Notes: generated by a model from the letters alone, not told the origin. Shown: positions 25,561 to 41,110, counted from the stretch's first letter. The stretch: DNA of 64,000 nt from Spirochaetia bacterium (GCA_963675665.1 OY776510.1:32001-96000); one strand, 5' to 3'. Translations and numbers: made by a program.

Positions 25561-26502
25561 CTATCTGTTATTCCGGTTTTGTACATAAAGCACGATAAGG
25601 ATAATCGCGGCCTTGATAATCAGTGAATATGCATACTGAATATTGTTCATATTAACCATCGTGGTGATAAACTGAATAATCAGCGCCCCTACAACCGTCC
25701 CTGTAAGCTTAAGCCTTCCGCCGCTCATCGACGTACCGCCGATAGCCACTGCCGCAATACAGTCCATTTCAATATTACGTCCTATTGTATTCGGATCAGC
25801 AGCACATATTCGTGCTGTTTCAAAAATAGCTGCGGTTCCAGTCAGAAGTGCATTTATGACGTAAACAATCATAATAGTCTTAAGCATATCCACACCGACA
25901 AGTCGTGCAGCAGTCCGGTTATCTCCCACGGCCTCAATATTTTTACCGAAGGCTGTATTCTGAATAATAAACCTGCATACAAAAAACAGAAGGACAAGAA
26001 TAACAACCTGAACGGGAATCTGCCCAGCAAATTTATATAAACCAAGATCGGTAAATGCGTTGTCGTAAAAAGAGATTATCATTGCATCGTTTACCAGCTG
26101 GGCAACCCCCCTTCCCGACATCATTAAGATCAGCGTTACAATAATCGGCTGAATATTGAACCTTGCAATTATGAAACCGTTGAAAATTCCAAAAAGCGCT
26201 GCCGCGCCAAGGGCAATCAGCACAGAAAGATAAATATTCCATTCAAAGATGATTATAAATTTTGCGACGACAATCGAGGTAAAAGCCATGATTGAGCCGA
26301 CGGAAATGTCGATACCTCCGGTACCTATTACCATCGTCATGCCGAATGATATCAGCATTACCGGAAATATCTGCATCAGCATATTCCACATGGTAGTTAC
26401 CTGAAGAAAATTCTTCGTGAAAATGCTGTTGAATATTATAAGGACTGCAAGGATTATCAGCCCGCTTCCTTCTATCAACAAGGTACGTTTATTAGCTTCC
26501 AT
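25561..26502 (-). CDS. Monosaccharide ABC permease (YtfT-like)
   Basis: GMTMVIGTGGIDISVG, IQPIIVTLILMMSGRGVAQL, EMDCIAAVAIGGT. Confidence 0.9.
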   Translation of the reverse strand: MEANKRTLLIEGSGLIILAVLIIFNSIFTKNFLQVTTMWNMLMQIFPVMLISFGMTMVIGTGGIDISVGSIMAFTSIVVAKFIIIFEWNIYLSVLIALGAAALFGIFNGFIIARFNIQPIIVTLILMMSGRGVAQLVNDAMIISFYDNAFTDLGLYKFAGQIPVQVVILVLLFFVCRFIIQNTAFGKNIEAVGDNRTAARLVGVDMLKTIMIVYVINALLTGTAAIFETARICAADPNTIGRNIEMDCIAAVAIGGTSMSGGRLKLTGTVVGALIIQFITTMVNMNNIQYAYSLIIKAAIILIVLYVQNRNNR

Positions 26503-27994
26503 GAGTTATAGCTTCCATTATATTTTTCTCGGTTATTTCTTCGTAGAAAAGTTCTTTTGTTATATGACCTTCCCTTATTACAATAACCCGGTCGCAGCCA
26601 CGAATCAGTTCCTCAAATTCAGACGATATCATTACCACACTTATTCCGGAGGCCGCCATTTCCTGAATAATCTTCTCAATTTCAGCTTTTGCGCCTACAT
26701 CAATACCCCGCGTAGGTTCATCCAGAATTATAAGCTCAGGCTGAACTGCAAGCCACCGGGATAGAATCACTTTCTGCTGGTTACCGCCGCTGAGATTACG
26801 AATCCTTTCACGCGGCGATGGAGTTTTAATTCTGATTTTTTCTGTAAATTCATTACATAACCTGTCCAGTTTTCTTTTGTCCAGCACACCACCCCTGCTG
26901 CACCGCTTCAGACTTGCAATAGTCAGATTTTCCTTAACTGATAAAAACGGGAAGATTCCTTCGCTTTTCCGGTTTTCCGAACAGAAAGCAATATTCCTGG
27001 AGATTGCCTCTTTCGGTTTATTAAAAACAACCCGTTCCCCGTTGATCAAAATCCTTCCGGATTCAGGTTTGTCCGCTCCGAAAAGTATCCGGGCAAGCTC
27101 GGTCCGGCCGGAACCGAGAAGTCCTGCGAATCCGAGAATTTCACCCCGCCGTATTTCAAAATCAACACCGTTAAGTTTTTTCCCTCGGATGATATTTTCT
27201 GCTGTTATGAAGGGTTTGGTATTTTTGTAATCTATTCGTTTTTCCTTCACATTCTTTAAAAGATTGGTCGCATCGCGCCCGATCATAAGTGTCACAAGTT
27301 CGAGTTGTGAGATATTGTCCGTTTTATAGCTTCCGACAAGTTTTCCATCCCTGAGAATTGTTATCTCATCCGAAATATGAAAAACCTCGCTTAATCTGTG
27401 ACTGATAAATATTGTTGCAATATTTCGTTTTTTAAGTTCTTCAATAACGTTAAAAAGGATTTTAACTTCATCATCGTCAAGAGAAGAGGTTGGCTCGTCC
27501 ATTACGACCAGCTTTGATTCTATTGAAATAGCCCGGCTTATAGCCACCATCTGCTGAATGGCCGCACCGAACCTGTTAAGAGGCAGAGTGACATCAACAT
27601 CAATGCATAGCCCCTGCAAAAGGTCTTCGGCTCCCCGGTTTATTTCGTCCCAGAGGATACGACCGTTCCTCTTCATTTCTCTTCCTATAAATATATTCTC
27701 TGCAACCGACAATGTGGGAATAAGATTCAGCTCCTGGTAAATTGTACTGATACCGACATGCTGCGCATCCAGGGGGTTTCGTGGATTGATTTCATTCCCG
27801 TTAAAAATAATTTTTCCTGCATCCTTTTTATACAGCCCGGTAAGCACCTTAATCAGCGTCGATTTCCCGGCGCCGTTCTCTCCCATTATCGAATGCACAC
27901 TGCCTTCAGATATCGACAAATCGACTTCAGACAACGCCCTGACCCCGGTGAAAGATTTTGAAATAGATATCATTTCAAGTATTTTTGCGTTCAT
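26492..27994 (-). CDS. Monosaccharide ABC ATPase, tandem NBD (YtfR-like)
   Basis: GENGAGKST, MDEPTSSL, GLLGSGRT, LSGGNQQK, DEPTRGIDVGAK. Confidence 0.93.
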   Translation of the reverse strand: MNAKILEMISISKSFTGVRALSEVDLSISEGSVHSIMGENGAGKSTLIKVLTGLYKKDAGKIIFNGNEINPRNPLDAQHVGISTIYQELNLIPTLSVAENIFIGREMKRNGRILWDEINRGAEDLLQGLCIDVDVTLPLNRFGAAIQQMVAISRAISIESKLVVMDEPTSSLDDDEVKILFNVIEELKKRNIATIFISHRLSEVFHISDEITILRDGKLVGSYKTDNISQLELVTLMIGRDATNLLKNVKEKRIDYKNTKPFITAENIIRGKKLNGVDFEIRRGEILGFAGLLGSGRTELARILFGADKPESGRILINGERVVFNKPKEAISRNIAFCSENRKSEGIFPFLSVKENLTIASLKRCSRGGVLDKRKLDRLCNEFTEKIRIKTPSPRERIRNLSGGNQQKVILSRWLAVQPELIILDEPTRGIDVGAKAEIEKIIQEMAASGISVVMISSEFEELIRGCDRVIVIREGHITKELFYEEITEKNIMEAITHGS

Positions 27995-28018
27995 AATTCA
28001 TCCGTTGTTTATGTGGCA

Positions 28019-28054
28019 AAAACAGCCTGGCCTGTTAAAAGACCGGGCTGTTTT
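28019..28054. terminator. Intercistronic stem-loop after the binding-protein gene
   Basis: AAAACAGCCTGG...CCGGGCTGTTTT. Confidence 0.55.
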
Positions 28055-28070
28055 CTGTTTTTAAAGATAA

Positions 28071-29030
28071 TCAGAAAGCTTCAGGCAAATATGCTTCAGC
28101 ATTTTTAATGGTTATTTCGCGTCCCTTGTTCTCAATAAAAACAGGAATCTTTTCTCCCGCCTCAAGCCTTTCGATGGTATCAAAAGAAATCGGTCCGAAA
28201 TAAGGGGTACATTCGATAGTGCCAAGCATCTCGCCGGCGAGAATTGCTTTAGCGGCATCCTTAAACCCTCCGAAACCTACAACTACAACATCGTTACCCG
28301 GAGCAATTCCGGCAGCCTTAAGAGCCTGAATGGAGCCGATTGCGCACTCGTCATCATGACCGAATACAGCATCAATCTGGTCGCCGTATGACTGAATAAC
28401 ATTTTCCATTGCCGCCTGGGCTATACCCCTTGTGAATTCACCGTTTTGTACGGCAATAATGTTCAGGTTCGGGTACTTCGCAATTTCCTCTTCAAACCCC
28501 TTCTGAAGATCAATTGCAACTGAAGAGCCCGGGGTACCGGTGATTACGACTATATTTGCGTCCTTCCCGTCGAAATGATTAGCCAGAAGCTGCGCATCCT
28601 GACGACCCGCGTTAACAAAATCGCCCCTGATACATGTGACATAATCTACACCCGGAACACCGGCCGCATCCCTGTCGATCAGGATAACCGGAATACCGGC
28701 TTCCTTTGCCGCTTCAAGAGCGGGGGCTATTCCGTCGAACTCTCTGGGAGCAAGCAGAATATAATCCGGATTGTTTGCGATAATGTCCTCGACATCCGAA
28801 ACCTGTTTGGCGGTATCGCCCTGGGCATCAGTATAGATAAGTTTTACACCGCGTTTTTCTGCTTCGGACTTAACGCTTCCGGTCTCCGCAACACGCCAGG
28901 CGTTGTTGATTTCCATCTGGGAAAAAGCTACAACAAGTTCCCCGTCTTCTCCGCTTTCCTGCTGCCCGCCTGCAAAACAGAAGCCTGCAAGAATCATTAC
29001 TGTCAGTACAAGACAAATACTCTTTTTCAT
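28071..29030 (-). CDS. Sugar ABC substrate-binding protein (YtfQ/galactofuranose-like)
   Basis: AFSQME.NNAWRVAET, TDAQG...KQ, IPVILIDR, GTIECTP..GP; ATG at 29030 with GGAG RBS. Confidence 0.85.
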   Translation of the reverse strand: MKKSICLVLTVMILAGFCFAGGQQESGEDGELVVAFSQMEINNAWRVAETGSVKSEAEKRGVKLIYTDAQGDTAKQVSDVEDIIANNPDYILLAPREFDGIAPALEAAKEAGIPVILIDRDAAGVPGVDYVTCIRGDFVNAGRQDAQLLANHFDGKDANIVVITGTPGSSVAIDLQKGFEEEIAKYPNLNIIAVQNGEFTRGIAQAAMENVIQSYGDQIDAVFGHDDECAIGSIQALKAAGIAPGNDVVVVGFGGFKDAAKAILAGEMLGTIECTPYFGPISFDTIERLEAGEKIPVFIENKGREITIKNAEAYLPEAF

Positions 29031-29147
29031 GACATTCTCCTTTAATTGTTTTACACAGGGTAGCACTGGAATTTCAGAGCCCGCAATTCAATATGACATT
29101 AATTTATTTCAATATAATCAGATCCTGCCCATCAGGGCATGTTCCTC

Positions 29148-30284
29148 TTACCAGTCGACAATTGTCCCGTCGTCATCGGCGTAAAGTCTCGGCGAATCCC
29201 AGGAACCGTCGTATGAACGTTCAGCGACAACTTCCTCATTCACCTCGATACCGAGACCCGGTTTATTATTGATTTTCACATAACCATCCTCAACCCTGAA
29301 GGGATCGGCAAGATACCCCACTCCGAGGTCCCACTCTTCCTTCATGCCGAAGTGCTCAGCTATCAGAAAGTTTGGAGTACAGGCGCCGAGCTGTATATTT
29401 GCCGCAAGCGAAACCGGGCCCAACGGATTATGAGGAGCAACCTTGCAGTAATATGCTTCAGCCATTGCAGCTATGCGGCGCACCTCGGTTATTCCCCCGG
29501 CATGGCAGAGATCAGGCTGAACAATATTAACAGCGCCTGATTCAAAGAGCGGACGGAAAGCTCCCCGACCGACAAGTCTCTCGCCGGTGGCTATTGAGGC
29601 TCCGGTCGCCCCGGCTATGCGCGCCATTGCGTCCGTGTTTTCAGGCAGGCAGGCTTCCTCTACAAACAGGGGGTAATATTGTTCTATCCCCCTGATTACC
29701 TGGATCGCAATGTCCGGATTAAGCCTGCCGTGAAAGTCGATAGCTATATCCATATCGTCCCCGACGGCTTCCCGGATCTCGCCGAAACGCACTATCTGAG
29801 ATTCAATATACCGTTTTACACCCCGGTTTGCCGTAAAGGGTTCAACCAGAATTTTGATTGCGGTAAATCCGTTTTTCTTGCGCTCAAGCGCCCGTGTTAT
29901 AATCTTTTCAGTCGTGGCGCCCCAGCAATGACCGTAAATTCTTATTTTGTCACGGTAAACGCCCCCGAGCATTTCATACACGGGAAGGCCGTAATGCTTT
30001 CCCTTTATATCCATCAACGCCTGTTCTATTCCGCTCAGAGCGCTCATCATTATGACCCCGCCCCGATAGAAAGTGTTGCGGTACATCGACTGCCAGAGAT
30101 ATTCGGTTCTGAGAGGGTCTTGTCCAATCAGAAAATCCCTATGCTCCATAACTGCGGCCTCAACCGTCCGGGCCCGCCCCTCGAGAATAGGTTCGCCCCA
30201 GCCTGTTGTTCCCTCATCGGTGGAAATCTTCAAAAAACTCCATCGCGGTTTTACATGAAATATTTCAATATCGGTTATTTTCAT
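29148..30284 (-). CDS. dgoD: Galactonate dehydratase (enolase superfamily)
   Basis: PRW.FLKI.TDEG..GWGEPILEGRARTV, FYRGG, DFHGR, ATGERL, APHNPLGP, D...DW C-terminus. Confidence 0.88.
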   Translation of the reverse strand: MKITDIEIFHVKPRWSFLKISTDEGTTGWGEPILEGRARTVEAAVMEHRDFLIGQDPLRTEYLWQSMYRNTFYRGGVIMMSALSGIEQALMDIKGKHYGLPVYEMLGGVYRDKIRIYGHCWGATTEKIITRALERKKNGFTAIKILVEPFTANRGVKRYIESQIVRFGEIREAVGDDMDIAIDFHGRLNPDIAIQVIRGIEQYYPLFVEEACLPENTDAMARIAGATGASIATGERLVGRGAFRPLFESGAVNIVQPDLCHAGGITEVRRIAAMAEAYYCKVAPHNPLGPVSLAANIQLGACTPNFLIAEHFGMKEEWDLGVGYLADPFRVEDGYVKINNKPGLGIEVNEEVVAERSYDGSWDSPRLYADDDGTIVDW

Positions 30285-31078
30285 TCTGTAATTTCCTTTG
30301 TCGCTTCTACCGACGACCAGTCGGTATCAAGATCATTCTCGGTGATAACCGGAAGAAGAGCCCCCCCGTCAATATCGAGACAGCTGCCCGTCATATATGC
30401 AAAATCATCCGATACAAGCGCCGCAATAACCTTCGCCATCTCTTCAGGACTGGCAAAACGCTTCAGCGGGATCTTTGCAGCCGCCTCGTGGATCGGATTG
30501 TCTGCGGGCCAGCCGACATCCGTGTAGCCGGGAGATATTGCCGCAGACCTTATCCCGTAGGGCGCAAGTTCCATAGCGATATGCTTTGTAAATTTTGCGA
30601 CGGCAGCCTTGGCAGGACCATATATACTGGAAGTGGGCCAGCATCCATCCTTCTGGTTTGAAGACATGTTAAGAATCACGCCTTTTACGCCTTTTTCAAT
30701 CATCAGCTGAGCAGCCCTCTGGGCACAGAAATAGGTACCCTTCCAGTCTATAGCGGTCAGCTCATCCCACATTGCTTCATCGACCTTTATAAAGGGTTTG
30801 AATTTGCTTATGCCGGCATTGTTTATAAGCAGATCAATCCTGCCGAACCGTTCGGTAAACTCTTCAAACATACGATCAATTTCTGAAACCCTTCCAACAT
30901 CAGCCTGAATGATAACAGCCTCAGCTCCTTTTTTTTCCACAAGAGCTTTCACCTCCATGGCTGCTTTTTCGCTTTTACTGTAATTAATACCTATATCATA
31001 ACCGCGGCGGGCAAGTTCAATTGCAACAGCCCTGCCTATCCCCCGGCCTGAACCGGTTATCAAAGCCTTTTTTCTCAT
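30281..31078 (-). CDS. SDR-family oxidoreductase (candidate aldose dehydrogenase)
   Basis: TGSGRGIG, NNAG, YGPAK, IDGG. Confidence 0.9.
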   Translation of the reverse strand: MRKKALITGSGRGIGRAVAIELARRGYDIGINYSKSEKAAMEVKALVEKKGAEAVIIQADVGRVSEIDRMFEEFTERFGRIDLLINNAGISKFKPFIKVDEAMWDELTAIDWKGTYFCAQRAAQLMIEKGVKGVILNMSSNQKDGCWPTSSIYGPAKAAVAKFTKHIAMELAPYGIRSAAISPGYTDVGWPADNPIHEAAAKIPLKRFASPEEMAKVIAALVSDDFAYMTGSCLDIDGGALLPVITENDLDTDWSSVEATKEITE

Positions 31079-31090
31079 AGCAATTTCCTT

Positions 31091-31948
31091 TTAATAATAT
31101 CTGAACAGAAAGGGAGCTTGACCTTTTGTGCCTGTATTTGCCCTAAAAACAGAACCGTCTGCCGGTCCAGGATTACTGAGACCCTCTGTCGCTGAGGTAA
31201 TAAAAAGCCCGGAATAATCTTCCCCGTAAAAACAGCATGAGGTAGGGTTTTTTGCTTCCAGTTTTATTTTCGCCATCATTTCACCGTTCGGGCTGAATCC
31301 GCAGACACAACCTCCGCCCCAGAAAGCGCTCCAGACATTCCCGGTCGAGTCAACAGTCAATCCGTCCGGATCACCTTTCATATCTTCCGAACTGATAAAC
31401 AGCTTTTCATCAGAAATACATCCTGTCTTTCGATCAAATTTCCATCTGCTGATCATGCTTTTACCTGTATCGGTTATATACATTATCGTTTCGTCTGGAC
31501 TCCATCCCAGACCGTTCGGGATCAGCATTCCTTCAATAATTTTTTCAATATGATCAGTTACCCGATACAAAGCTCCTACAGGCTTGCCTCCGTCACAAGA
31601 CATGGAGCCGACCCAGAAAGCTCCGTCCGGACCAACCTTTCCATCGTTAAAACGTAATTTGCTTCTGTCAAACGGAGGTTCGAAAAGTCTTTTTTTCAGC
31701 CTGAAGCAGGTATCATAGACTGAAATTCCGTCCGAACCTGCTGCAATTATATTTCCGTCTTCAGTCGTCCCTGCACAGCAGACAAAACCCACAACGGAAA
31801 GTTCTTCAATACAGAACTGATCCGCTTCAGCAAAAAATACTTTTTCACCCAGAATATCAAACCAGTAAATATCTTTTGCAACAGTAAACGGACCTTCCCC
31901 GAGACAATGTCCCGGAGAAGCCATAACCTCCGCTTTCAATGCTTTCAT
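31091..31948 (-). CDS. SMP-30/gluconolactonase family lactonase
   Basis: LGEGP, RFNDGKV, PNGLGWSPD, PDGLTVD, PTSCCF, LFITSA. Confidence 0.92.
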   Translation of the reverse strand: MKALKAEVMASPGHCLGEGPFTVAKDIYWFDILGEKVFFAEADQFCIEELSVVGFVCCAGTTEDGNIIAAGSDGISVYDTCFRLKKRLFEPPFDRSKLRFNDGKVGPDGAFWVGSMSCDGGKPVGALYRVTDHIEKIIEGMLIPNGLGWSPDETIMYITDTGKSMISRWKFDRKTGCISDEKLFISSEDMKGDPDGLTVDSTGNVWSAFWGGGCVCGFSPNGEMMAKIKLEAKNPTSCCFYGEDYSGLFITSATEGLSNPGPADGSVFRANTGTKGQAPFLFRYY

Positions 31949-31954
31949 TGTGTC

Positions 31955-32950
31955 TTACACTGCTTTCTGCATATTGTTCTGCCTAAGCTGATCAACAATT
32001 ACTGCTATCAGCAAAATGGAACCTCTTACAACATACTGGTAGAAAGTAGGGATATTCAGAAGATTCATCGCATCCTGAACAGTCCCCATGATAAGAACAC
32101 CTACAATAGCTCCCTGGATAGGCGCAATTCCTCCGTTCAATGAGACCCCGCCGAGAACGCAGGATGATATTACGTTCAGCTCAAATCCCTGCGCCGCGTT
32201 AGGCTGACCCGATGTCATTCTTGAAGATAAAATTACCCCTGCAAAACCGGCGACCAGACCCTGAAGGGTAAATATCATTATTTTTACCCGATCAACATTA
32301 ATACCGGCAAGCCTGGCAGCCTCAACATTACCGCCAATAGCCAGAGTATTTTTCCCAAATGTCGTATTATTTATCAGAACGGCAAAAACCGCAAAACAGA
32401 ATATTGTTATCCAGATAGGAGCGGGAATTCCGATAAAGATATTGTTTCCAAGTCCGAAAAAACCCGGGTTCCCAATACTGATTGCCTGGCCTCCGGAAAC
32501 AATATAAGCAAATCCCCTGACTATCTGCATCATCGCAAGCGTAGTTATAAGCGCATTTATATGAAGTTTGGCAATAATAACGCCGTTCAGAGCACCGAAA
32601 AGCCCGCCGGCAAGGATTCCGCATAGAATTCCCAGACCGACCGCGCCTGTACTGTTAATTATGACTGCAGCAACTACCCCCGAAAAGGCTACAATCGCAG
32701 AGACAGAAAGATCAAAATCTCCGGAAGCCAGACAGAACAGCATTGTGCATGAAACCATCCCAAGCATTGAAACCGATAATGCAAGCGCAATCATGTTCCG
32801 CCAGGTAAAAAAGTAGGGCACAAAAATTGACAATAAAATAAATAATACAATATATATAAAAAGCATACTCGAATTCTGCCATAAATTCCTGGCAATATCT
32901 TTTACACCCTTCCTCTTCGTGTCCAGGCTGTTTTCTGCAATATTACTCAT
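31955..32950 (-). CDS. araH: L-arabinose ABC permease
   Basis: GMVSCTMLFCLASGDFDLSV, INALITTLAMMQIVRG, SRMTSGQP, CVLGGVSL. Confidence 0.88.
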   Translation of the reverse strand: MSNIAENSLDTKRKGVKDIARNLWQNSSMLFIYIVLFILLSIFVPYFFTWRNMIALALSVSMLGMVSCTMLFCLASGDFDLSVSAIVAFSGVVAAVIINSTGAVGLGILCGILAGGLFGALNGVIIAKLHINALITTLAMMQIVRGFAYIVSGGQAISIGNPGFFGLGNNIFIGIPAPIWITIFCFAVFAVLINNTTFGKNTLAIGGNVEAARLAGINVDRVKIMIFTLQGLVAGFAGVILSSRMTSGQPNAAQGFELNVISSCVLGGVSLNGGIAPIQGAIVGVLIMGTVQDAMNLLNIPTFYQYVVRGSILLIAVIVDQLRQNNMQKAV

Positions 32951-34470
32951 AACTTAACTCCTGTAGAATCTTCTCTCTGTTCAAATTCCGGCAATGCATA
33001 ATGAAGAACCGATTCTTCCGTCGCATCGCTGCGCTGAATCTCCCTGACAATCCGGCCGCTCCTCATTACAAGGATTCTGTCCGCTACACCTATAACCTCC
33101 GGAAGCTCAGATGAAATAAAAATTATCGCGTTACCCTGTTCTGCGAGTGTATACATAAGTTTGTATATCTCGCTTTTGGTACCCACGTCTATTCCCCTTG
33201 TTGGCTCATCAAGAATAATCAGCTCTGTCGGCATTGAAAGATTTCTGGCAATAATAACCTTTTGCTGGTTTCCTCCTGAAAGGTTGCCGACAAGCTGCTC
33301 CATCGAAGGAGTTTTAATAGCAAGTTTATCAATAAAATCCGCGGCATTTTTTCTTTCACGCTTCTTGTCCAGAAACAGCCCGGCTTTAACATATTTCTTT
33401 CTGACGGAAATATTAATATTTTCATTAACATCCCGGACGGGAATTATTCCCTCTGCCTTTCGGTCTTCAGGACATAAGACTATACCTTCGGAAAGGGACA
33501 CTGACGGTGAACTTGTTTCTACAACTCTTCCGTTAAGTTTGAGCTCGCCTGTCTTCTTTTTATTCTGACCGTAGATCAGCCTCATCAATTCCGAACGTCC
33601 TGCGCCGACGAGTCCGAAAAAACCAAGGATCTCACCCTTTCTTACTTCAAAACTAACCGGTTCCGGAATTCCGGGACCTGCTATGTCATTTACCGTAAAA
33701 GCCGGCCCGCCTATTGTTCGTGCCCTGTAAGAAAAAATATCTTCTATCTTTCGCCCTACCATCTGGCTGACTATTTCATCATGTGTAGCTTTTTTAATAT
33801 CATCGTAGGTTATAATTTTCTTCCCGTCACGAAAAATTGTTAACGCGTCACACACTTCAAAAATTTCATTTAGCCGGTGTGACACATAAATAATGACGCA
33901 CCCCTGTTTCTTCAATGCATCAATAATTTTAAATAACCGGGCAGTTTCCTTCTCTGAAAGACTTGATGTGGGTTCATCAAATGCGATTATCCTCGCATTA
34001 TGAAGAAGAGCTTTGCCTATCTCTATCATCTGGCGCTGCGCAATTGGAAGATTCTTCACTTTAGTATTCGGATCAATCTTCTCCATCAGATGATCAAGCT
34101 CTTCCAGGCTGATTTTTTCAAGTTCCTTTTTGTCAATCAGCCCCCTTCTGACAGGTATATGCCCCAGCATAAGGTTTTCCGCCACAGACATATCAGGCAC
34201 AAGATTCAACTCCTGGTAGATTACTGCGGTACCTTCATCTATTGCTTCTTTCGGAGAATTAAACCTGCATTCTTTTCCGTTGACAAACAATGCACCGTCT
34301 GTCTGCGGATGCGCACCGCTTAATATTTTAAGCAATGTTGATTTGCCGGCGCCGTTCTCTCCTACAAGCCCATGAACCGATCCCTCTTTTACTGAAAGTG
34401 ATACATCATTCAGGGCTGTAACTCCAGGGAATTTCTTGGTTATGTTCTTGAATTCCAAATAAGCAGTCAT
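32947..34470 (-). CDS. araG: L-arabinose ABC ATPase
   Basis: GENGAGKSTLLKILSG, IAFDEPTSSLS, CPEDRKAEGII, LSGGNQQK. Confidence 0.88.
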   Translation of the reverse strand: MTAYLEFKNITKKFPGVTALNDVSLSVKEGSVHGLVGENGAGKSTLLKILSGAHPQTDGALFVNGKECRFNSPKEAIDEGTAVIYQELNLVPDMSVAENLMLGHIPVRRGLIDKKELEKISLEELDHLMEKIDPNTKVKNLPIAQRQMIEIGKALLHNARIIAFDEPTSSLSEKETARLFKIIDALKKQGCVIIYVSHRLNEIFEVCDALTIFRDGKKIITYDDIKKATHDEIVSQMVGRKIEDIFSYRARTIGGPAFTVNDIAGPGIPEPVSFEVRKGEILGFFGLVGAGRSELMRLIYGQNKKKTGELKLNGRVVETSSPSVSLSEGIVLCPEDRKAEGIIPVRDVNENINISVRKKYVKAGLFLDKKRERKNAADFIDKLAIKTPSMEQLVGNLSGGNQQKVIIARNLSMPTELIILDEPTRGIDVGTKSEIYKLMYTLAEQGNAIIFISSELPEVIGVADRILVMRSGRIVREIQRSDATEESVLHYALPEFEQREDSTGVKL

Positions 34471-34484
34471 TTTACTCCCTTATA

Positions 34485-34510
34485 ATAGCCGGGTCGATAA
34501 ACCCGGCTAT
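34485..34510. terminator. Intercistronic stem-loop after araF
   Basis: ATAGCCGGGT-CGATAA-ACCCGGCTAT. Confidence 0.55.
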
Positions 34511-34533
34511 ACGTCTAATCTGTCAGTCTGTAT

Positions 34534-35547
34534 CTACTCGAGACCCATCTCTTTTCTGACCTGCTTGTAGTTGTCTCTGGTCATAAGTACACCTGATGTA
34601 AAAATCGCTTTATCGGGTTCAACACCGTCGGCAATCCATTTATACATATTGACTGAAGTCTCATAACCATGCTGTTTGGCTGCGAGAAGAACAGTTGCAT
34701 GAAAACCTGTCATTTCGGACTTTTCAAGTTCACCGACTGCGAGATCATTACCGTTGATTCCAACTCCGATAATATTGTCAGCCTTGAAACCGTTACCCTC
34801 AAGGGCTCTTACCCCGCCGATTGTCGTATCGTCGCATAATGAATAAACAAGCCAGTTTTCAATTTCAGGATGCGCAGCAACAAGAATATTGGTTGCGTCA
34901 AATCCACCTTCTGTTGTTGAATCGGTAGCAGTTGGAGCCTCAAAAACATTCGCTTTGGAAAATCCCATTTGAACAAGCATCTCAGTAGCTCCGTCCGTTC
35001 TCTCTTTGCTTGTTGGGAGCTCGTCGTATGTGAGACAATCCGCGCCGGTTTTACTCAGATCCCAACCCCTTCTTTTCGCTTCATCCATAAGGGCTTTGCC
35101 AACCTGCTTTCCGATTTCGTAAGCTGAAATACCCATATGATGTACTTCTTCCATAGGTTTGCCATCGGCACCTATAAATCGGTCGTCTACACTCATCAGC
35201 TTCATTTTATTCTGATCAGCTTTCATCTTGATTGAAGGCCCCAGCTTTACATCAGGTGTACATATAATAAATCCCTGTACATTCTGTGCTGCCATATTAT
35301 CTATTGCGGCAAGAACACTTTCACCATCGGGAGTACTTATCTTTATCAGTTCGAAACCGTACTCATCAGCCGCCTGCTGTGCAAACCTCCACTCATCCTG
35401 AAACCATGAACATTCCGCCAGTTTAACGAGGAATCCGATCTTTATCCCTTCGGAACCTTCAGCTTCCTGCTGCCCACCTGCAATAACCGGGCTGAGAACT
35501 GCCAGCAACAGAACCGCCGCGATTAGTAATGCCAGAATTCTTTTCAT
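34534..35547 (-). CDS. araF: L-arabinose-binding periplasmic protein
   Basis: KIGFLVK...WFQDEW.FA, ICTPDVKLGP, SVDDRF, GGVRALEG, GING, HGY; ATG at 35547 with AAGGAG RBS. Confidence 0.88.
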   Translation of the reverse strand: MKRILALLIAAVLLLAVLSPVIAGGQQEAEGSEGIKIGFLVKLAECSWFQDEWRFAQQAADEYGFELIKISTPDGESVLAAIDNMAAQNVQGFIICTPDVKLGPSIKMKADQNKMKLMSVDDRFIGADGKPMEEVHHMGISAYEIGKQVGKALMDEAKRRGWDLSKTGADCLTYDELPTSKERTDGATEMLVQMGFSKANVFEAPTATDSTTEGGFDATNILVAAHPEIENWLVYSLCDDTTIGGVRALEGNGFKADNIIGVGINGNDLAVGELEKSEMTGFHATVLLAAKQHGYETSVNMYKWIADGVEPDKAIFTSGVLMTRDNYKQVRKEMGLE

Positions 35548-35583
35548 ATTAATCTCCTTTGTATGATTGTTTGTCGTTGATAA

Positions 35584-35600
35584 TGCACTATCCATGCCAA
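35584..35600 (-). promoter_or_regulatory. sigma54 (-24/-12) promoter of the araF operon
   Basis: Minus strand TTGGCATGGATAGTGCA: GG-N10-GC spacing, about 35 nt upstream of the araF ATG. Confidence 0.8.
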
Positions 35601-35693
35601 CCCAGAATGATGGGAAACTGAAATATATAAATCCTTTTCATTCAAGAACTTATACTATAACATGCATTATCCTGAAATCTATATTTTTTTGTA

Positions 35694-35745
35694 ACGGGAA
35701 AAACCTCTCCCGCTCGAACTGATTTTACGGGAATATATTTTCCCA
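35694..35745. promoter_or_regulatory. Two palindromic upstream activator (enhancer) site candidates
   Basis: ACGGGAA-AAACCTC-TCCCG (35694-35712) and ACGGGAA-TATATTT-TCCCA (35727-35745), 33 bp apart. Confidence 0.65.
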
Positions 35746-35768
35746 TTTCAGATTTTTTAAGAAAAACA

Positions 35769-35803
35769 TTGAGTGATTAATACATCCTTATTATAATCCT
35801 TTT
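35769..35803 (+). promoter_or_regulatory. sigma70-type promoter, apparently leaderless
   Basis: TTGAGT-N17-TATAAT-N6-ATG, no SD. Confidence 0.65.
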
Positions 35804-37108
35804 ATGTCTTATTCCATTCTTATTGTCGATGACGAGAAGCATATGTGCATATCGCTTTCGAAACTCCTGAATCTTCATGATTTTGAAACATCATATGAAA
35901 CAAATGCAGATGATGCCCTTGCCGTACTGAGAAAAGTTAAATTTGATCTGATAATAACAGATCTTAAAATGCCCGGAATGGACGGAATACGCTTCATCGA
36001 CAGAATAAAATCAATGAAGCTTCCTATTCCGATTATTATGATATCCGGTTACGCTACAGTAGAAAATGTCGTCGAAGCAATGCGCTGCGGTGCAATTAAC
36101 TTTTATTCAAAACCGGTAGACACCAGCATTCTTCTGGCTGAAATAAAAAAAATATTAAATATAAAAAGACTCCCCAGAGACAATATTCAGAACATCGTTA
36201 CTGAAAACAGGAAAATTAATGAACTGTTGATGTTTGCCGGTAAAGCCGCGCCTACGGACGCCCCTGTCATCATCACCGGTGAAAGCGGGACCGGAAAGGA
36301 ACTTTTCGCCTCTTATATTCATAATATGAGCAAAAGGAAAGAAAAACCTTATATCAAAATAAACTGTGCCGCCATACCTGAGAGCCTTCTTGAGAGTGAA
36401 CTTTTCGGACATGTGAAAGGCGCTTTTACAGATGCAAAAGAAAACCGAAAGGGCAAATTTGAAATAGCTGAAGGCGGAACAATCTTTTTTGACGAGATCG
36501 GTGAAATGAGCATGAAAACCCAGGCAAAACTGCTCAGGGTCATTCAGGAAAAAGAATTTGAACAGGTCGGATCCAATGATATAAAACATATGGACATCAG
36601 GTTTATTGCCGCAACAAACCGCAATCTTCAGGAAATGGTTGGACAGGGAGAATTCAGGGAAGACCTGTTCTACCGGTTGAATGTCGTAAGCATAAAAATT
36701 CCGTCCCTCCGCGAGCGCAAGGATGATATCCTTCCTCTTGCAAGACATTTCCTGAACGAAATGAACCTTATATACAACAAGCAGATTACGGAATTTACCG
36801 AAGAGGCCTCATCAGCCTTTCTTAAGCATGACTGGCCCGGCAATATCAGGGAACTTAAAAACACCATTGAACGTGCAGTCATCTTCTGTGAAGAAAACAA
36901 CCTTGGAATTGAATGCCTGCCGGAAGCATACCGCGACAGTATAAACGAAGAAAGCAGTAATCTGAAAAATGTATATGACAAGGTAACACGCGAGGTTATT
37001 CTTGACGCACTGGAAAAATCCAACGGTTCAAAACAGAAGGCTGCAGAGCTTCTGAATATTAACCGCAGAACACTTTATAATAAAATGAAACTGCTGGATT
37101 TGCTGTAG
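35804..37108 (+). CDS. NtrC-family sigma54-dependent response regulator
   Basis: REC (VDDE, TDLKMP), AAA+ (GESGTGKE, ESELFGH.KGAFTDA, FDEIGE, WPGNIREL), Fis-type HTH. Confidence 0.95.
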   Translation: MSYSILIVDDEKHMCISLSKLLNLHDFETSYETNADDALAVLRKVKFDLIITDLKMPGMDGIRFIDRIKSMKLPIPIIMISGYATVENVVEAMRCGAINFYSKPVDTSILLAEIKKILNIKRLPRDNIQNIVTENRKINELLMFAGKAAPTDAPVIITGESGTGKELFASYIHNMSKRKEKPYIKINCAAIPESLLESELFGHVKGAFTDAKENRKGKFEIAEGGTIFFDEIGEMSMKTQAKLLRVIQEKEFEQVGSNDIKHMDIRFIAATNRNLQEMVGQGEFREDLFYRLNVVSIKIPSLRERKDDILPLARHFLNEMNLIYNKQITEFTEEASSAFLKHDWPGNIRELKNTIERAVIFCEENNLGIECLPEAYRDSINEESSNLKNVYDKVTREVILDALEKSNGSKQKAAELLNINRRTLYNKMKLLDLL

Positions 37109-37114
37109 GTAAAT

Positions 37115-38923
37115 ATGAGTAAAATACTTGAAGTATCAAATATTAATTATTCATACGGAAATATCGAGGCGCTCTGCAGTTTTGATTTCGAACTGAACAA
37201 AGAGGAAATTCATGCCCTGACAGGCGATCACCGTTCAGGAAAATCAACCTTCGCAAAAATACTTGGGGGCGCCCTGAAAAACCAGAGCGGGCTTATTAGA
37301 CTTTTCGATAAAAACTTTCCGTTTCTTACCCCTAAAACCGCAATTCAGAACAGGATTGGCGTGGTTTACCAAACTCCTGAAACTGTACCGAATATGACGG
37401 TTGTAGAAAATATATTCATAGGCAGGATGCCCCATTTTCTTATAACCGGAAAAGACAAAGAACAGATGTGCAATACCTGCAGAGATCTGTTTGCCTGGTT
37501 GAATATTGATCTTGATATCGATACTCCTTTAAAAAAGCTGTCTTCAGGAGAACTGCAGATTGTAAGTATTGCCAGGGTATTATCTCTCGGGGTTAAGATT
37601 CTTGTACTTGATGAAATATCTCAACTGCTTACCCCGGCTGAAATGCAGGACATCTACAGTATTTGCAGAACAATCAGAAAAAAAGGTATATCAACAATTT
37701 ATATAACATCCAATATTGATGAAACCTTCAGGATAGCGGATCGTGTAACTGTAATCCGGGACGGCTGCAGAACAGGAACAGAAAAGATAAAAACCGTAGA
37801 TCCTTCCAGGCTTGCAAACCTTGTTTATAACATGGCCTATTCTTCAGATAATGACAGAAAAAATAACGAACCTTTCTTCTTTTTTACCAACCATGAAAAG
37901 GCAATTGTTAAAGATTTACCGATAGGAATGATCGTGCTGGATAGTGAAAATAATCCCTTGTTGATAAATACTTCGGCAGAGAATATTCTTAAAAAGAGCG
38001 GAGAAACACGGGAAAGCAATCTTCTTCATGATATCTTTTCAATTATAAATTCGGATGAACTTGAAAATATTATTGAAGCAATAAAAAGCAGACAGGAATA
38101 TTCCAGGGAAAAAACTTTTACAGAAACCAGCAGATTCCTGAGTTTTAAATCAATACCACTTTATGACAACAACAGCAACTTTATAGGTACAAATATCTTT
38201 TTGGAAGATGTTTCTACCGAACACGATACGAAAGAATACCTCCTGCGAGCTGAACGAATTGCATCTACAGCTGAACTTGCGGCAGGCGTTGCCCATGAAA
38301 TCAATAACCCCCTCGGAATAATTCAGAATTATGTAGAAATACTAAGCATGAGCACTGAAGACCGGGAAAGCAGGGAACAACTGCAACAGATAAAAAGAGA
38401 ACTTGCGCGTATAGTTGAAATTGTCGGCAGCCTGCTTTCATTTTCCAGAGTTCAGAAAAACCCGCTTAAAACAATTTCAGTCGACTCGCTTCTGGATGAG
38501 GTGATTCTTCTTCTCGGACATAAGCTAAAAGATAAAAATATAAATCTTATTAAAAACTATGGAAAAGAATCCATAATAATAAAGGGATATGAGAACAGAC
38601 TTAAACAGCTGTTTATGAATCTTATTGTAAACGCAATTGAAGCGGTTCTGAGCGGCGGAAAAATAAAAATTGATATTGATACTTTCCAGGAACATGTCGA
38701 AATAAGTATTTCCGATAACGGTTACGGTATTTCCGAAAAGGTAAATAATGATATTTTCAAACCCTTTTTCAGCACTAAAATGACCAAGATGAATACAGGA
38801 CTCGGATTATCAATCTGTCAGCATATTGTCGAAACACATAAGGGGATAATTACCTTTGAAAGCCGTCCGGGAAACTGGACAAAATTTTCCGTAAGGCTGC
38901 CCCGGTTTCAGTCTAAAAACTAA
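37115..38923 (+). CDS. Fusion of a degenerate sugar-ABC ATPase domain, a PAS domain and a histidine kinase; no TM segments
   Basis: N-terminus GDHRSGKST, VVYQ, LSSGE, LVLDE, YITSN, ADRVTVIRDG; PAS LPIGMIVLD...INTSAE; H-box VAHEINNPL; QLFMNLIVNA, DNGYG, PFFSTK, TGLGL. Confidence 0.9.
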   Translation: MSKILEVSNINYSYGNIEALCSFDFELNKEEIHALTGDHRSGKSTFAKILGGALKNQSGLIRLFDKNFPFLTPKTAIQNRIGVVYQTPETVPNMTVVENIFIGRMPHFLITGKDKEQMCNTCRDLFAWLNIDLDIDTPLKKLSSGELQIVSIARVLSLGVKILVLDEISQLLTPAEMQDIYSICRTIRKKGISTIYITSNIDETFRIADRVTVIRDGCRTGTEKIKTVDPSRLANLVYNMAYSSDNDRKNNEPFFFFTNHEKAIVKDLPIGMIVLDSENNPLLINTSAENILKKSGETRESNLLHDIFSIINSDELENIIEAIKSRQEYSREKTFTETSRFLSFKSIPLYDNNSNFIGTNIFLEDVSTEHDTKEYLLRAERIASTAELAAGVAHEINNPLGIIQNYVEILSMSTEDRESREQLQQIKRELARIVEIVGSLLSFSRVQKNPLKTISVDSLLDEVILLLGHKLKDKNINLIKNYGKESIIIKGYENRLKQLFMNLIVNAIEAVLSGGKIKIDIDTFQEHVEISISDNGYGISEKVNNDIFKPFFSTKMTKMNTGLGLSICQHIVETHKGIITFESRPGNWTKFSVRLPRFQSKN

Positions 38924-39845
38924 AATCGGAAATTTCAATGTCCAGCGCCCATTCCCGTACTTCACAAGGACTTAGAACTGATTCGTTACCCCAGGCACGG
39001 GCAGCCACAGGATCATCCATCGGGGCGCTCGCCGGTTCCAGTGCCAGATTATACTGACTGTCCCAGCCGCCTGAGTTCATCCAGATTCCGAGCCAGGGTA
39101 GTTTATCAGCTGAAACCGACATTTTTATCTCAAACCCCTGCTTTTCACGTCTTAAAACAGACCATCCTGCAGTATTCTTCTGCCTGAAATAATATTTCCT
39201 GTACCCGTCGCAGGTTTTTTCCGGCATATCGGAAAACTCCTTTGTCCAGCCGTATTCCCGCCCGTAGTCCGGTAAATCAACCGAAGGAACTGCATTTATA
39301 ACTGAGGTCAGGTTATCCGGCACTATTATCCGGTCGTCTTTATCAACATTGAAAAGAGGATGAGCAGCATACAGAAAAGGCATCGGAAAAGGCGAAAGAT
39401 TTTCAACCCGGTAAACAGTTTTGATGCTCGAACCTTCCAGCCGAACCCTTTTTGAAAGCCGGTACGGTAACCTGACGCCGAAAACGGAGAATACGACATC
39501 TTCCGTTCTTTTTTCATCGCTCCAGGGAATGGCCCACACCTCTCCGTGATCCGGAAGCTCAACCCCGCGCCATGGAAAATCCGGACAAAGGCATTTATTG
39601 ATTGTTGGAAACATTTCGTCAAACCCGGCCTTTTCACCGTCGGGAAACGGCTGGGCATAGCTAACCGGCGCATGCACTTTCCCGGTGTTCTGCCAAAGAA
39701 GTTCACAGTCTGCAGACTTAAAGAGGATCGAGGCTGTCCTCGCGCCTGCAGCCGGAACTATTTCCACCCTGAGGTCCCTGTTATCTAAAACGACTGATTT
39801 CAGGTTCTTATAATTGTTCTCATATACATTCATTGCTTTTCTCAC
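38913..39845 (-). CDS. Galactose-mutarotase-like (aldose epimerase-fold) protein
   Basis: GFDEMFPTI, LPDHGEVW, YAAHPLF, LGIW, LALEP. Confidence 0.75.
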   Translation of the reverse strand: MRKAMNVYENNYKNLKSVVLDNRDLRVEIVPAAGARTASILFKSADCELLWQNTGKVHAPVSYAQPFPDGEKAGFDEMFPTINKCLCPDFPWRGVELPDHGEVWAIPWSDEKRTEDVVFSVFGVRLPYRLSKRVRLEGSSIKTVYRVENLSPFPMPFLYAAHPLFNVDKDDRIIVPDNLTSVINAVPSVDLPDYGREYGWTKEFSDMPEKTCDGYRKYYFRQKNTAGWSVLRREKQGFEIKMSVSADKLPWLGIWMNSGGWDSQYNLALEPASAPMDDPVAARAWGNESVLSPCEVREWALDIEISDFSF

Positions 39846-41110
39846 ACCACGGTATTGTTGAAAGACTTTACTTCATCAAACATTGCTATTACATTTTCAA
39901 CGGGCGTATTTCCCACTATATTATGTATCGTATTGAAAACAAAGCCGCCTCCCGGAGACAGTATTTCAAGTCTTTCCCTCACCTCTGAACGAACTTCTTC
40001 CGGATTACCGAAAGGAAGCGTTTGCTGGGTATCCACCCCGCCGCCCCAGAAGGTCAGTTTGCCGCCGTACTCCTGTTTAAGCATTCTGCCGTCCATTCCG
40101 GCTGCACTTAGCTGGACGGGATTGAAGATATCGAAGCCGGCCTCAACAAACTCGGGCAGAAAATTGACAATTGAACCGCAGCAGTGGAAATGAGAATACC
40201 AGTTTGTATTCTCATGAACCCAGCCGTTAAGAGCAGTATAGTGCTCCTTGTAGAACTCCCTGAAATGTTCCACCGACATAAGCTCTCCCGACTGACTTCC
40301 GAAATCAGTACATGAGATATTTATGGTTGTTATTTTATCCCCAACAGCCTGCTTTATTATTTCAAGATTTTTAAATGCCAGCTCAGTCTGCCAGGAAAAT
40401 AATTCTTTCAGGTAATCCGGGTAAAGATAGTGGGCCATATACCAGTCTTCAAGTTTTCTTATACCCCGGGGATGCTTTTCCCAGGGACCGGGTATAATAG
40501 CGGCGTCACCGAATCCCCCTCCATTGAAATTGAAATGTATTGCACAGTCGGTTTTCTCAAAAAGCTCTGAGCAGCTGTTCTCTATAAACAGTGCGTCCGC
40601 ATCACTAAAAACCCCGTAAAGTTCACTGAAATCACGTACCGGATCCATATCCGACTCGTCTATTGCAGGCGCACGATCAATATTATCGAAAAAAGTCCCG
40701 CCTACCGGCAGCCGTACGCTTGGCGGCACACTGCGATCTCCCTGCGGATAAACCACGCACCCGCCGTCTTCAGTTTCATCATACTGAAAATTACCCGGCA
40801 TATTGACGGGCGTCCCGTCGGGCATTCGCCACGCTCGCCAGCTGTCAAAACGTGTGCCGAACAGAGTTCCCGGACACCATAGCGGTACTGTATCCACCCC
40901 GAGGGCCTTTCTCAAATCTTCATCTATCGTTCCAAGCAGCTGAAAGGGTTCGCATATATCTATCGGTTTATCCTTAAGCCCAAGCTCCCTCCGAAGCTGA
41001 TACAGGACGCTTGCATTTATCCCGCTCTGCCCTGAAGCCCCCAGATCAAGCGGTACCCTGTCCGGCTTTTCATGCCTGAGGGCTTTTTTTATTCGTTCTC
41101 TTGACGTCAT
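39842..41110 (-). CDS. Uroporphyrinogen-decarboxylase-family (MtaA/CmuA-like) protein
   Basis: MTSRERI...PDRVPLDLG, HFHCCG, NPVQ, FWGGGVDTQ.TLPFG, GGFVFNTIHNI. Confidence 0.85.
   Translation of the reverse strand: MTSRERIKKALRHEKPDRVPLDLGASGQSGINASVLYQLRRELGLKDKPIDICEPFQLLGTIDEDLRKALGVDTVPLWCPGTLFGTRFDSWRAWRMPDGTPVNMPGNFQYDETEDGGCVVYPQGDRSVPPSVRLPVGGTFFDNIDRAPAIDESDMDPVRDFSELYGVFSDADALFIENSCSELFEKTDCAIHFNFNGGGFGDAAIIPGPWEKHPRGIRKLEDWYMAHYLYPDYLKELFSWQTELAFKNLEIIKQAVGDKITTINISCTDFGSQSGELMSVEHFREFYKEHYTALNGWVHENTNWYSHFHCCGSIVNFLPEFVEAGFDIFNPVQLSAAGMDGRMLKQEYGGKLTFWGGGVDTQQTLPFGNPEEVRSEVRERLEILSPGGGFVFNTIHNIVGNTPVENVIAMFDEVKSFNNTVV

Follow-up and report, generated by a model that had tools for sequence, protein, structure and literature searches.

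What does a sensor kinase respond to when its input domain is the motor of a transporter? The question is raised by a locus at positions 31,955 to 38,923 of a 64,000-nucleotide (nt) stretch of DNA from a Spirochaetia bacterium (GCA_963675665.1 OY776510.1:32001-96000; hereafter the window, to whose full length all positions refer). Here a single gene, at 37115-38923, joins the nucleotide-binding domain (NBD) of an ATP-binding cassette (ABC) transporter to a PAS domain and a histidine kinase. It lies directly behind the gene of an NtrC-type response regulator and is divergent from an operon encoding a CUT2-class sugar importer. An initial annotation, made from the window alone, had proposed that the NBD docks on the permease of this importer, so that the pump serves as a receptor. 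Below, the kinase of the window is called K1, and the other copies in the same genome are called K2 to K8. Based on synteny and promoter elements at 31 loci, we conclude that the kinase very probably acts through the regulator on a sigma-54 promoter of the adjoining operon. As to what is sensed, docking of the NBD on the permease is the reading that we tentatively favor.

A soluble histidine kinase with an ABC ATPase domain at its N terminus

The reading of the gene as one uninterrupted frame holds. Its 602-amino-acid (aa) product (P0001) carries four Pfam domains above cut-off, namely, ABC_tran at aa 23-168 (E 3.8e-22; 79.8 bits vs a cut-off of 25), PAS_10 at aa 263-366 (23.8 bits vs 22.1), HisKA at aa 387-447 (53.4 bits), and HATPase_c at aa 492-597 (85.5 bits), the last two being over their gathering scores. 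In NCBIfam, aa 1-250 aligned to the N-terminal half of the tandem CUT2 ATPases YtfR, AraG, AlsA, XylG, MglA, and RbsA, and aa 259-601 aligned to AtoS-like kinases. All equivalog scores were far under their cut-offs (AraG, 158.3 bits vs 689; YtfR, 164.2 vs 850), and the protein, which has a single NBD, is not a tandem CUT2 transport ATPase. The match to AtoS (NF008468) was likewise partial and reached 236 bits vs a cut-off of 646; therefore, the name AtoS given in public sources does not denote membership. Caution is warranted in annotation, as this name and "ATP-binding cassette domain-containing protein" both misdescribe the fusion kinases.

The NBD motifs named in the initial annotation are all present: Walker A GDHRSGKST (aa 37-45), the Q-loop Gln (Q86), LSSGE (aa 142-146) in place of the canonical LSGGQ signature, LDEISQ across Walker B and the D-loop (aa 165-170), and YITSN (aa 196-200), which places S199 at the switch (H-loop) position where the neighboring AraG has His (YVSHR). 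The HisKA-class kinase core is complete, with H394, N502, N506, D534, G536, G538, G562, and G564 invariant in alignments of 20 and 118 sequences. Only one hydrophobic peak was found (Kyte-Doolittle 19-aa mean of 1.96 at aa 147), at a place in the NBD formed by the signature helix and the Walker B strand. Since this peak lies inside a confidently modeled domain core, the kinase is predicted to be soluble, with neither a membrane segment nor a periplasmic sensor, as had been supposed.

An AlphaFold2 model of the monomer was obtained from an alignment of 118 homologues (mean predicted local distance difference test [pLDDT] of 75). The NBD (aa 1-225) was modeled at a pLDDT of about 80-90, the DHp domain formed a long hairpin of helices 367-413 and 417-445, and the PAS and catalytic domains were also modeled; the linker between NBD and PAS (aa 230-265) contains a helix at a pLDDT of <50. 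Foldseek searches of the PDB matched the NBD half to the isolated NBDs MJ1267 (1g6h; template-modeling [TM] score by target of 0.81), LptB, and MetN and the other half to the PAS kinases YF1 (4gcz) and ThkA (3a0r). A PDB sequence search likewise related the PAS-DHp-catalytic part to ThkA, a soluble PAS kinase (3a0r; E 6e-34). With a best query-normalized TM score of 0.37, no PDB chain listed spans both halves.

The fusion forms a family with eight members in one genome

A word-indexed search recovered at least 120 such proteins, K1 included; 117 of the 119 others were full-length, at 41-77% identity, with an identical precomputed Pfam set. These homologues were drawn from many independent contigs and sources, and the organism, where named, was a spirochete. 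With more than 115 full-length homologues, the fusion is thus not peculiar to this assembly. When 1.84 billion representatives of 50% identity clusters were searched exhaustively with phmmer, the result was 11,037 matches at an E value of ≤1e-30. Both the NBD and the kinase core, NBD first, were held by 127 of the 150 best representatives (median length, 610 aa), while the remaining 23 were shorter or longer proteins that matched one part or covered too little of a part. Distribution within the phylum is patchy: among 401 Spirochaetota genomes sampled, this one included, a full-length match at an E value of ≤1e-50 was seen in at least 14, representing 11 of 153 genera, which is a lower bound because three candidates were scored per genome. 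The closed 5.15-Mb contig of this genome carries eight intact copies, with K2 to K8 being 27-32% identical to K1.

Variant architectures were also encountered. P0044 (851 aa) has an NBD, a lengthened middle with two HisKA stretches, and a catalytic domain. P0068 (378 aa, 66% identical) is a PAS kinase without an NBD, which could reflect either truncation in gene calling or a form that naturally lacks this domain; its longest contig is equal in length to that of an AraH match. When homologue P0094 was used to query the ESM Atlas, it returned its own cluster and clusters of ABC_tran+GAF_2+HisKA proteins of 826-852 aa, mostly labeled Actinomycetota (score of 0.84), an unconfirmed lead; if it is real, NBD-kinase fusions arose or spread beyond the spirochetes. 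A metagenome-assembled genome labeled KSB3 (L022) encodes proteins very near those of this genome and gives no firm evidence for spread outside Spirochaetota.

A probable circuit of kinase, regulator, and sigma-54 promoter

The initial annotation had called for homologues to sit beside both a sigma-54 activator and a CUT2 importer. As to the activator, a sigma-54 regulator gene directly precedes all eight paralogues, with overlapping open reading frames (ORFs) in seven and a 6-nt gap at K1. The other-genome set comprised 24 fusion kinases at 23 loci, where ORFs were labeled from their BLASTP matches among the proteins annotated in this genome; the regulator lies directly upstream of 23 of the 24 kinases, and the 24th is cut by the end of its contig. 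The importer part of the claim is borne out less completely. Seven of the eight paralogues adjoin a CUT2 importer, consisting of a Peripla_BP_4 or Peripla_BP_1 binding protein, a two-NBD ATPase, and a BPD_transp_2 permease, and a CUT2-type permease occurs at 22 of the 23 loci of other genomes, so that 29 of 31 loci in all have the importer while K7 and the locus L132 lack an adjacent one. Six of the seven importer-adjacent paralogues are divergent from the importer; K8 follows one importer, with which it shares a strand, and is convergent with another. For 15 kinase homologues, the longest contig is equal in length to that of an AraH match, which suggests that the two share contigs. A locus search by kinase-core patterns was swamped by ordinary kinases, with full-length fusions at 6 of 80 loci.

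Promoter elements were surveyed as well. In the whole genome, the strict pattern TGGCAY-N5-DTGC was counted 39 times, vs about 44 expected from composition, and it faces the neighboring operon at K1 to K4, K6, and K7, where chance would put about 0.03 occurrences in the 3.6 kb scanned. Near variants are present at K5 (TGGCAT-N5-CTGC) and K8 (TGGTAC-N5-TTGCA). Among the regions upstream of importers at K1-type loci, eight of nine have a -24/-12 element oriented toward the importer genes. In the window, two dyads lie 33 nt apart and about 100-145 nt upstream of the sigma-54-type element; a spacing of this type is typical for NtrC-type enhancers. One further locus, L020, has a GGGAA-N6-TTCCC dyad of the K1 type at 11839-11854. 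A dyad common to all orthologous loci was considered and rejected, as GGGAA-N4-8-TYCC matched only the window and L020.

The locus in the window thus has the parts of an NtrC-type sigma-54 two-component system, i.e., a regulator with receiver, AAA+, and helix-turn-helix (HTH) domains, a -24/-12 element at the target, and rpoN in the genome. The regulator, the divergent araFGH genes, the promoter, and the enhancer-like sites had all been correctly named at the outset, judging by domains, equivalog matches, the -24/-12 element, and the dyads. The sigma-54 contact loop of the K1 regulator reads GAFTDA (aa 206-211) rather than GAFTGA, and the match to the AtoC model (407.9 bits) is under the NCBIfam cut-off of 714. 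Six paralogous regulators have GAFTGA, GAYTGA, or GSFTGA at this loop; a motif pattern found none in the K4 regulator.

Taken together, kinase and regulator would be expressed as one operon, and the phosphorylated regulator would bind the two GGGAA-N6-TCCC dyads and activate the sigma-54 promoter (35599-35584), which would drive the genes for the binding protein, AraG, AraH, the lactonase, the dehydrogenase, and the galactonate dehydratase. We regard this circuit as highly probable on the evidence of gene order and promoter elements across the 31 loci. By its predicted gene products, the operon looks like an uptake system coupled to an oxidative (De Ley-Doudoroff-like) route for sugars of the D-galactose/L-arabinose type. 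Candidate sugar-responsive, sigma-54-dependent switches would thereby become available for the poorly studied free-living spirochetes.

Some loci differ in composition. L020:4950-11800 has two regulator-kinase pairs of the fusion family back to back, each by its own importer, and other genomes too hold two to three copies of the fusion kinase. At L117:5703-8784 and at L131, the ATPase that accompanies a CUT2-type permease and binding protein has one NBD (262-281 aa) rather than two in tandem. K7 (L018, G000:C1:4303800-4323000) and K8 (L019, G000:C1:1965800-1985600) adjoin operons for a glycyl-radical enzyme (pyruvate formate-lyase-like) and its activase; the K8 operon includes an importer and the K7 operon does not, the latter, divergent from the kinase, encoding two alcohol dehydrogenases besides the enzyme and activase.

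The kinase NBDs descend from the first NBD of a CUT2 ATPase

The neighboring AraG shows the usual CUT2 asymmetry between its two NBDs: NBD1 has Walker A GENGAGKST, the switch His (YVSHR), and the signature LPIAQ, and NBD2 has GLVGAGRSE, no switch His, and LSGGNQQ. The kinase NBD shares with NBD1 of AraG, RbsA, MglA, XylG, and YtfR the fold, Walker A, Q-loop, Walker B Asp-Glu, and a non-canonical signature. It differs in that it is single, without the NBD2 partner that supplies LSGGNQQ in AraG, in its fusion to PAS and kinase domains, in the long branches of the kinase NBDs, and in the frequent replacement of the switch His.

In a FastTree phylogeny of 148 rows (70 N-terminal and 70 C-terminal halves of CUT2 ATPases and the eight kinase NBDs), the C-halves were set apart (support of 99), K2 to K8 formed a clade (99), and all eight kinase NBDs lay on one side of a weakly supported branch (64). 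A quick IQ-TREE analysis (LG+C20) included the N-halves of the 8 neighbor ATPases and of a random draw of 22 from the other 62, 10 C-halves (every third), 7 K1 orthologues, and the 8 kinase NBDs of this genome. Here the 15 kinase NBDs formed one clade (Shimodaira-Hasegawa-like approximate likelihood ratio test [SH-aLRT] of 98) with two subclades (99 each), nested among N-halves with the C-halves as outgroup (100); the K4, K6, and K8 rows are long, and quick-tree supports deserve less trust in such a case. A single clade inside the NBD1 halves points to one descent of the kinase NBDs from an NBD1 half of a tandem CUT2 ATPase, with no repeated capture. The idea that each kinase NBD was copied from the neighboring ATPase was rejected, as the kinase NBDs are a clade of their own in both trees.

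One 17-row subclade (SH-aLRT of 86) took in the N-halves of seven of the eight kinase-neighbor ATPases and of 10 of the 22 drawn at random; importers linked to kinases may therefore come mostly from one CUT2 subfamily.

Residue conservation was surveyed in 118 K1 orthologues. K43, Q86, and D166 are present in all 118 and E167 in 115, and this near-invariance of the Walker A, Q-loop, and Walker B residues indicates that nucleotide binding is probably conserved in the K1 group. A conserved loss of the switch His, which the initial annotation expected, was not found: the position is S in 73 orthologues, H in 35, T in 7, and another residue in 3, and His is also kept in three of the eight paralogues (K2, K3, and K7). 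Nor did the altered signature prove to be a change specific to the fusion, given the NBD1 descent of the domain; with LPIAQ in the neighboring AraG NBD1, the LSSGE of the kinase is no farther from canonical than that NBD1. At the signature positions, L is kept in 116 orthologues, S/T in 107, and G/A in 92.

Mean pairwise identity among K1 orthologues (2000 random pairs) was 0.50 for the NBD, 0.38 for the linker, 0.33 for PAS, 0.63 for DHp, and 0.54 for the catalytic domain; among the eight paralogues, the respective values were 0.29, 0.40, 0.25, 0.39, and 0.33. Conservation is thus lowest in PAS, usually the ligand-binding domain, and this holds within the orthologues as well, although many of them apparently adjoin AraH-type importers. 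The NBD is far more constrained, in keeping with selection on it, and the linker helix is conserved across paralogues though the monomer model is unsure there. These values provide modest evidence that the NBD is the functional input and the linker the transmitter.

Candidate signals for the NBD-kinase

The mechanism that we favor starts from a kinase with no membrane or periplasmic part, whose NBD is taken to be a diverged copy of a CUT2 NBD1 that keeps its ATP-binding residues. The two NBDs of a kinase dimer would meet the AraH dimer on its cytoplasmic side, replacing AraG on some importers. The sugar-loaded binding protein would then trigger closure or release of the docked NBDs, and their movement would reach the kinase core by way of the conserved linker helix and the PAS domain; the importer would thereby double as receptor. 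We tentatively prefer this reading, in which the NBD pair takes the place of the motor, because it best explains an input domain that is derived from CUT2 NBD1 and strongly conserved. We attach a similarly guarded degree of belief to the broader proposal of an ABC importer acting as receptor, whose binding-protein-driven cycle would be read out as phosphorylation, with eight insulated channels among about 70 CUT2 importers.

The complex of permease and NBD was predicted in one job with two copies of AraH (120-row alignment) and the kinase NBD (aa 1-250; 108 rows). The score was 0.52 (runs of 0.53, 0.52, and 0.51), which grades as weak support, vs 0.00 for the best of three controls; partner pLDDT was at least 76, and contact agreement between runs was at least 95%. 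In the calibration set, 116 of 157 solved complexes passed the mark, as did 2 of 215 mismatched pairs; both of these mismatches scored ≤0.60, a range that took in only 18 of the solved complexes that passed. A PDB sequence search with AraH gave no solved relative at an E value of ≤0.001.

Several observations weigh against docking. Unless a pairing was already likely, a grade of "weak" is wrong in most cases, and because the NBD is a homologue of the true partner of AraH, likeness alone could yield 0.52, so that the score speaks for compatibility at most. A linker pLDDT of <50 makes rigid mechanical coupling not evident, and canonical ATP-sandwich closure is uncertain since a homodimer of NBD1-type domains pairs two LSSGE signatures. 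The importer retains its own complete ATPase. Among the paralogues, K5 has Arg in place of the Walker A Lys and, like K6, no Q-loop Gln. For K7, the nearest tandem CUT2 ATPase is 48 kb off; at L132, the stretch holds no importer but has a LacI-type regulator and, downstream, araB/araD/araA. As the genome encodes 70 tandem two-NBD CUT2 ATPases, the eight kinases would each need to choose their own permease, and no determinant of such a choice among the 70 importers was identified. Finally, mere regulation of the importer, whatever the kinase senses, accounts for the synteny equally well. A complement of 70 CUT2 ATPases is a very large set, and about one in ten importers has an adjoining NBD-kinase.

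A rival reading is sensing within the cytoplasm, where PAS or the NBD would detect the imported sugar or a pathway intermediate without touching the importer, and the NBD would be an ATP/ADP-dependent dimerization or energy-state module that gates the kinase. A soluble kinase whose PAS-DHp-catalytic part resembles soluble PAS kinases such as ThkA would suit this role, as would kinases with no adjacent importer (K7 and L132), a linker that is flexible in the model, and an NBD in which ATP-binding residues are kept and those for hydrolysis or closure (switch His and signature) vary; nor does synteny require physical contact. We consider it somewhat less likely than docking. It leaves unexplained why the input is constantly an NBD1 of the CUT2 class and why a CUT2 importer is found at 29 of 31 loci. 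PAS is the least conserved domain in the orthologues (0.33 vs 0.50 for the NBD), and no ligand pocket was identified in it. The Q-loop Gln, which in ABC transporters couples the ATP site to the permease, is present in 118 of 118 orthologues.

If the NBD does dock, its part could still be that of a decoy or brake, which binds the permease or AraG to control transport or to keep the kinase inactive at an idle pump, the signal being displacement by AraG rather than NBD closure. The evidence for docking (conserved ATP residues, complex score, and NBD1 origin) would serve here as well, and a non-canonical signature with frequent loss of the switch His suits a domain that binds without cycling. There is precedent in MalK, which holds MalT inactive at the idle pump. 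A pure decoy would have no use for the catalytic Glu seen in 115 of 118 orthologues or the His seen in 35 of 118; we rate this account as decidedly improbable. An artefact, be it a chimeric assembly or a decaying, non-functional gene fusion, has virtually no probability, as no evidence for it was found and eight intact paralogues in one closed contig, a constant domain order in 127 of the 150 best representative clusters, and invariant catalytic residues all oppose it. What probability remains on the question of sensing we leave to mechanisms that we have not thought of.

Relation to known sensory systems

Searches for a characterized counterpart of the fusion agreed with the initial annotation, which knew of none. 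An ABC-NBD/histidine-kinase fusion was not found in a full-text literature search, whose coverage left out most subscription journals, and PDB sequence and Foldseek searches gave no solved structure of one. The available part of a review on two-component systems of oral bacteria (PMC5706477) describes no such fusion.

Known systems resemble K1 in part. The cores are those of AtoS/AtoC, ZraS/ZraR, NtrB/NtrC, and ThkA (PAS-DHp-catalytic in the kinases, receiver-AAA+-HTH in the regulators), none of which has an ABC input domain. In the BceS-BceAB flux-sensing modules of Firmicutes, the kinase signal comes from an ABC transporter and the system induces the transporter genes; BceS is a membrane kinase that touches the permease BceB as a separate protein (PMC4513084, PMC10314905, PMC9169098, and bioRxiv 10.1101/2020.02.28.969956). 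The proposal made here is alike in that the signal would come from an ABC transporter rather than from free ligand, with a two-component system predicted to induce the transporter genes. It differs in that the kinase is soluble and itself holds an ABC ATPase domain as candidate coupling, that the transporter is a binding-protein-dependent CUT2 sugar importer rather than one for peptide resistance, and that the regulator is sigma-54 dependent. In a Bce module, the kinase is of the intramembrane-sensing type and has two membrane helices, and the BceB-type permease carries a large extracellular domain, whereas K1 has no membrane helices and its neighboring permease is BPD_transp_2/AraH.

CbrA and CrbS are sensor kinases to which an SLC5 solute-symporter domain is fused (PMC7096432 and PMC5715377). 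They share with the kinases described here the union of a transporter-derived domain and a histidine kinase in one polypeptide and a link to carbon-source use; there the fused part is a membrane permease, while here it is a soluble ATPase motor domain, which would borrow a permease encoded next door. CbrB, too, is sigma-54 dependent.

ChvE-VirA, LuxP-LuxQ, and TorT-TorS involve kinases fed by a binding protein that touches their periplasmic domains. A periplasmic binding protein of a transporter would inform the sensor kinase here as well, and because the fusion kinase is wholly cytoplasmic, the signal would have to pass the membrane through the permease. Binding-protein-dependent sensor kinases are covered in a review (PMC8050422).

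The NBD-kinase is thus a two-component sensor with an undescribed input module that belongs to neither the Bce nor the CbrA/CrbS type. Known co-sensing with transporters relies on separate membrane proteins or fused permeases; an ABC motor as kinase input, if true, would be a third, undescribed solution, by which a soluble kinase gains periplasmic information via an existing pump. Eight copies in one genome, each by a different sugar operon, would also make the family naturally suited to work on the encoding of NBD-permease specificity.

The locus and its surroundings

The features of the locus are given in Table 1. The longest ORF of the binding protein has its first ATG inside the promoter element, so the real start is probably M17 (35547), just ahead of the signal-peptide-like MKRILALLIAAVLLLAV. 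A similar over-extension of an ORF into the promoter was noted at K2, K4, K5, K7, and K8.

Table 1. Features of the K1 locus in the 64,000-nt window
Feature	Position	Strand	Basis or note
Galactonate dehydratase, last gene of the probable regulated operon	29148..30284	-	NF010624, 458.3 bits vs cut-off 311
Short-chain dehydrogenase, candidate sugar 1-dehydrogenase	30281..31078	-	
SMP-30/gluconolactonase-family lactonase	31091..31948	-	
CUT2 permease, AraH equivalog, BPD_transp_2 (P0005, 331 aa)	31955..32950	-	NF008441, 482.5 bits vs cut-off 378
Tandem two-NBD CUT2 ATPase, AraG equivalog (P0003, 507 aa)	32947..34470	-	NF008442, 756.7 bits vs cut-off 689
Periplasmic sugar-binding protein (P0004)	34534..35595	-	Longest ORF
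Sigma-54 -24/-12 promoter-like element TGGCAT-GGATA-GTGCA, facing the importer operon	35584..35599	-	
Dyad GGGAAAAACCTCTCCC, candidate activator-binding (enhancer) site 1	35696..35711		GGGAA-N6-TCCC pattern
Dyad GGGAATATATTTTCCC, candidate activator-binding (enhancer) site 2	35729..35744		GGGAA-N6-TCCC pattern
NtrC-type response regulator (P0002, 434 aa): Response_reg, Sigma54_activat, AAA_lid_14, HTH_8 (Fis-type HTH)	35804..37108	+	Pfam, NCBIfam
NBD-PAS-HisKA-HATPase_c sensor kinase (P0001, K1, 602 aa)	37115..38923	+	One uninterrupted ORF; Pfam, NCBIfam
Kinase NBD, aa 1-225	37115..37789	+	
Kinase linker, aa 226-265	37790..37909	+	
Kinase PAS, aa 266-366	37910..38212	+	
Kinase DHp, aa 367-447	38213..38455	+	
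Kinase catalytic domain, aa 448-602	38456..38920	+	Stop at 38921-38923

Beyond the galactonate dehydratase gene, a second CUT2 importer comes next on the minus strand (window 26492-29066). It includes a YtfQ-like binding protein (28071-29066, minus strand; 218.8 bits vs a cut-off of 510) and a tandem ATPase (26492-27994, minus strand; genome 58492-59994). On the other side, a 310-aa ORF (38913-39845, minus strand) overlaps the end of the kinase gene by 11 nt and had no Pfam match at an E value of ≤1e-12 and no NCBIfam match at an E value of ≤1e-20. Genes for uroporphyrinogen decarboxylase-like (URO-D) proteins are found near both the K1 locus (window 39842-41110, minus strand) and the K2 locus (L013:5816-7072).

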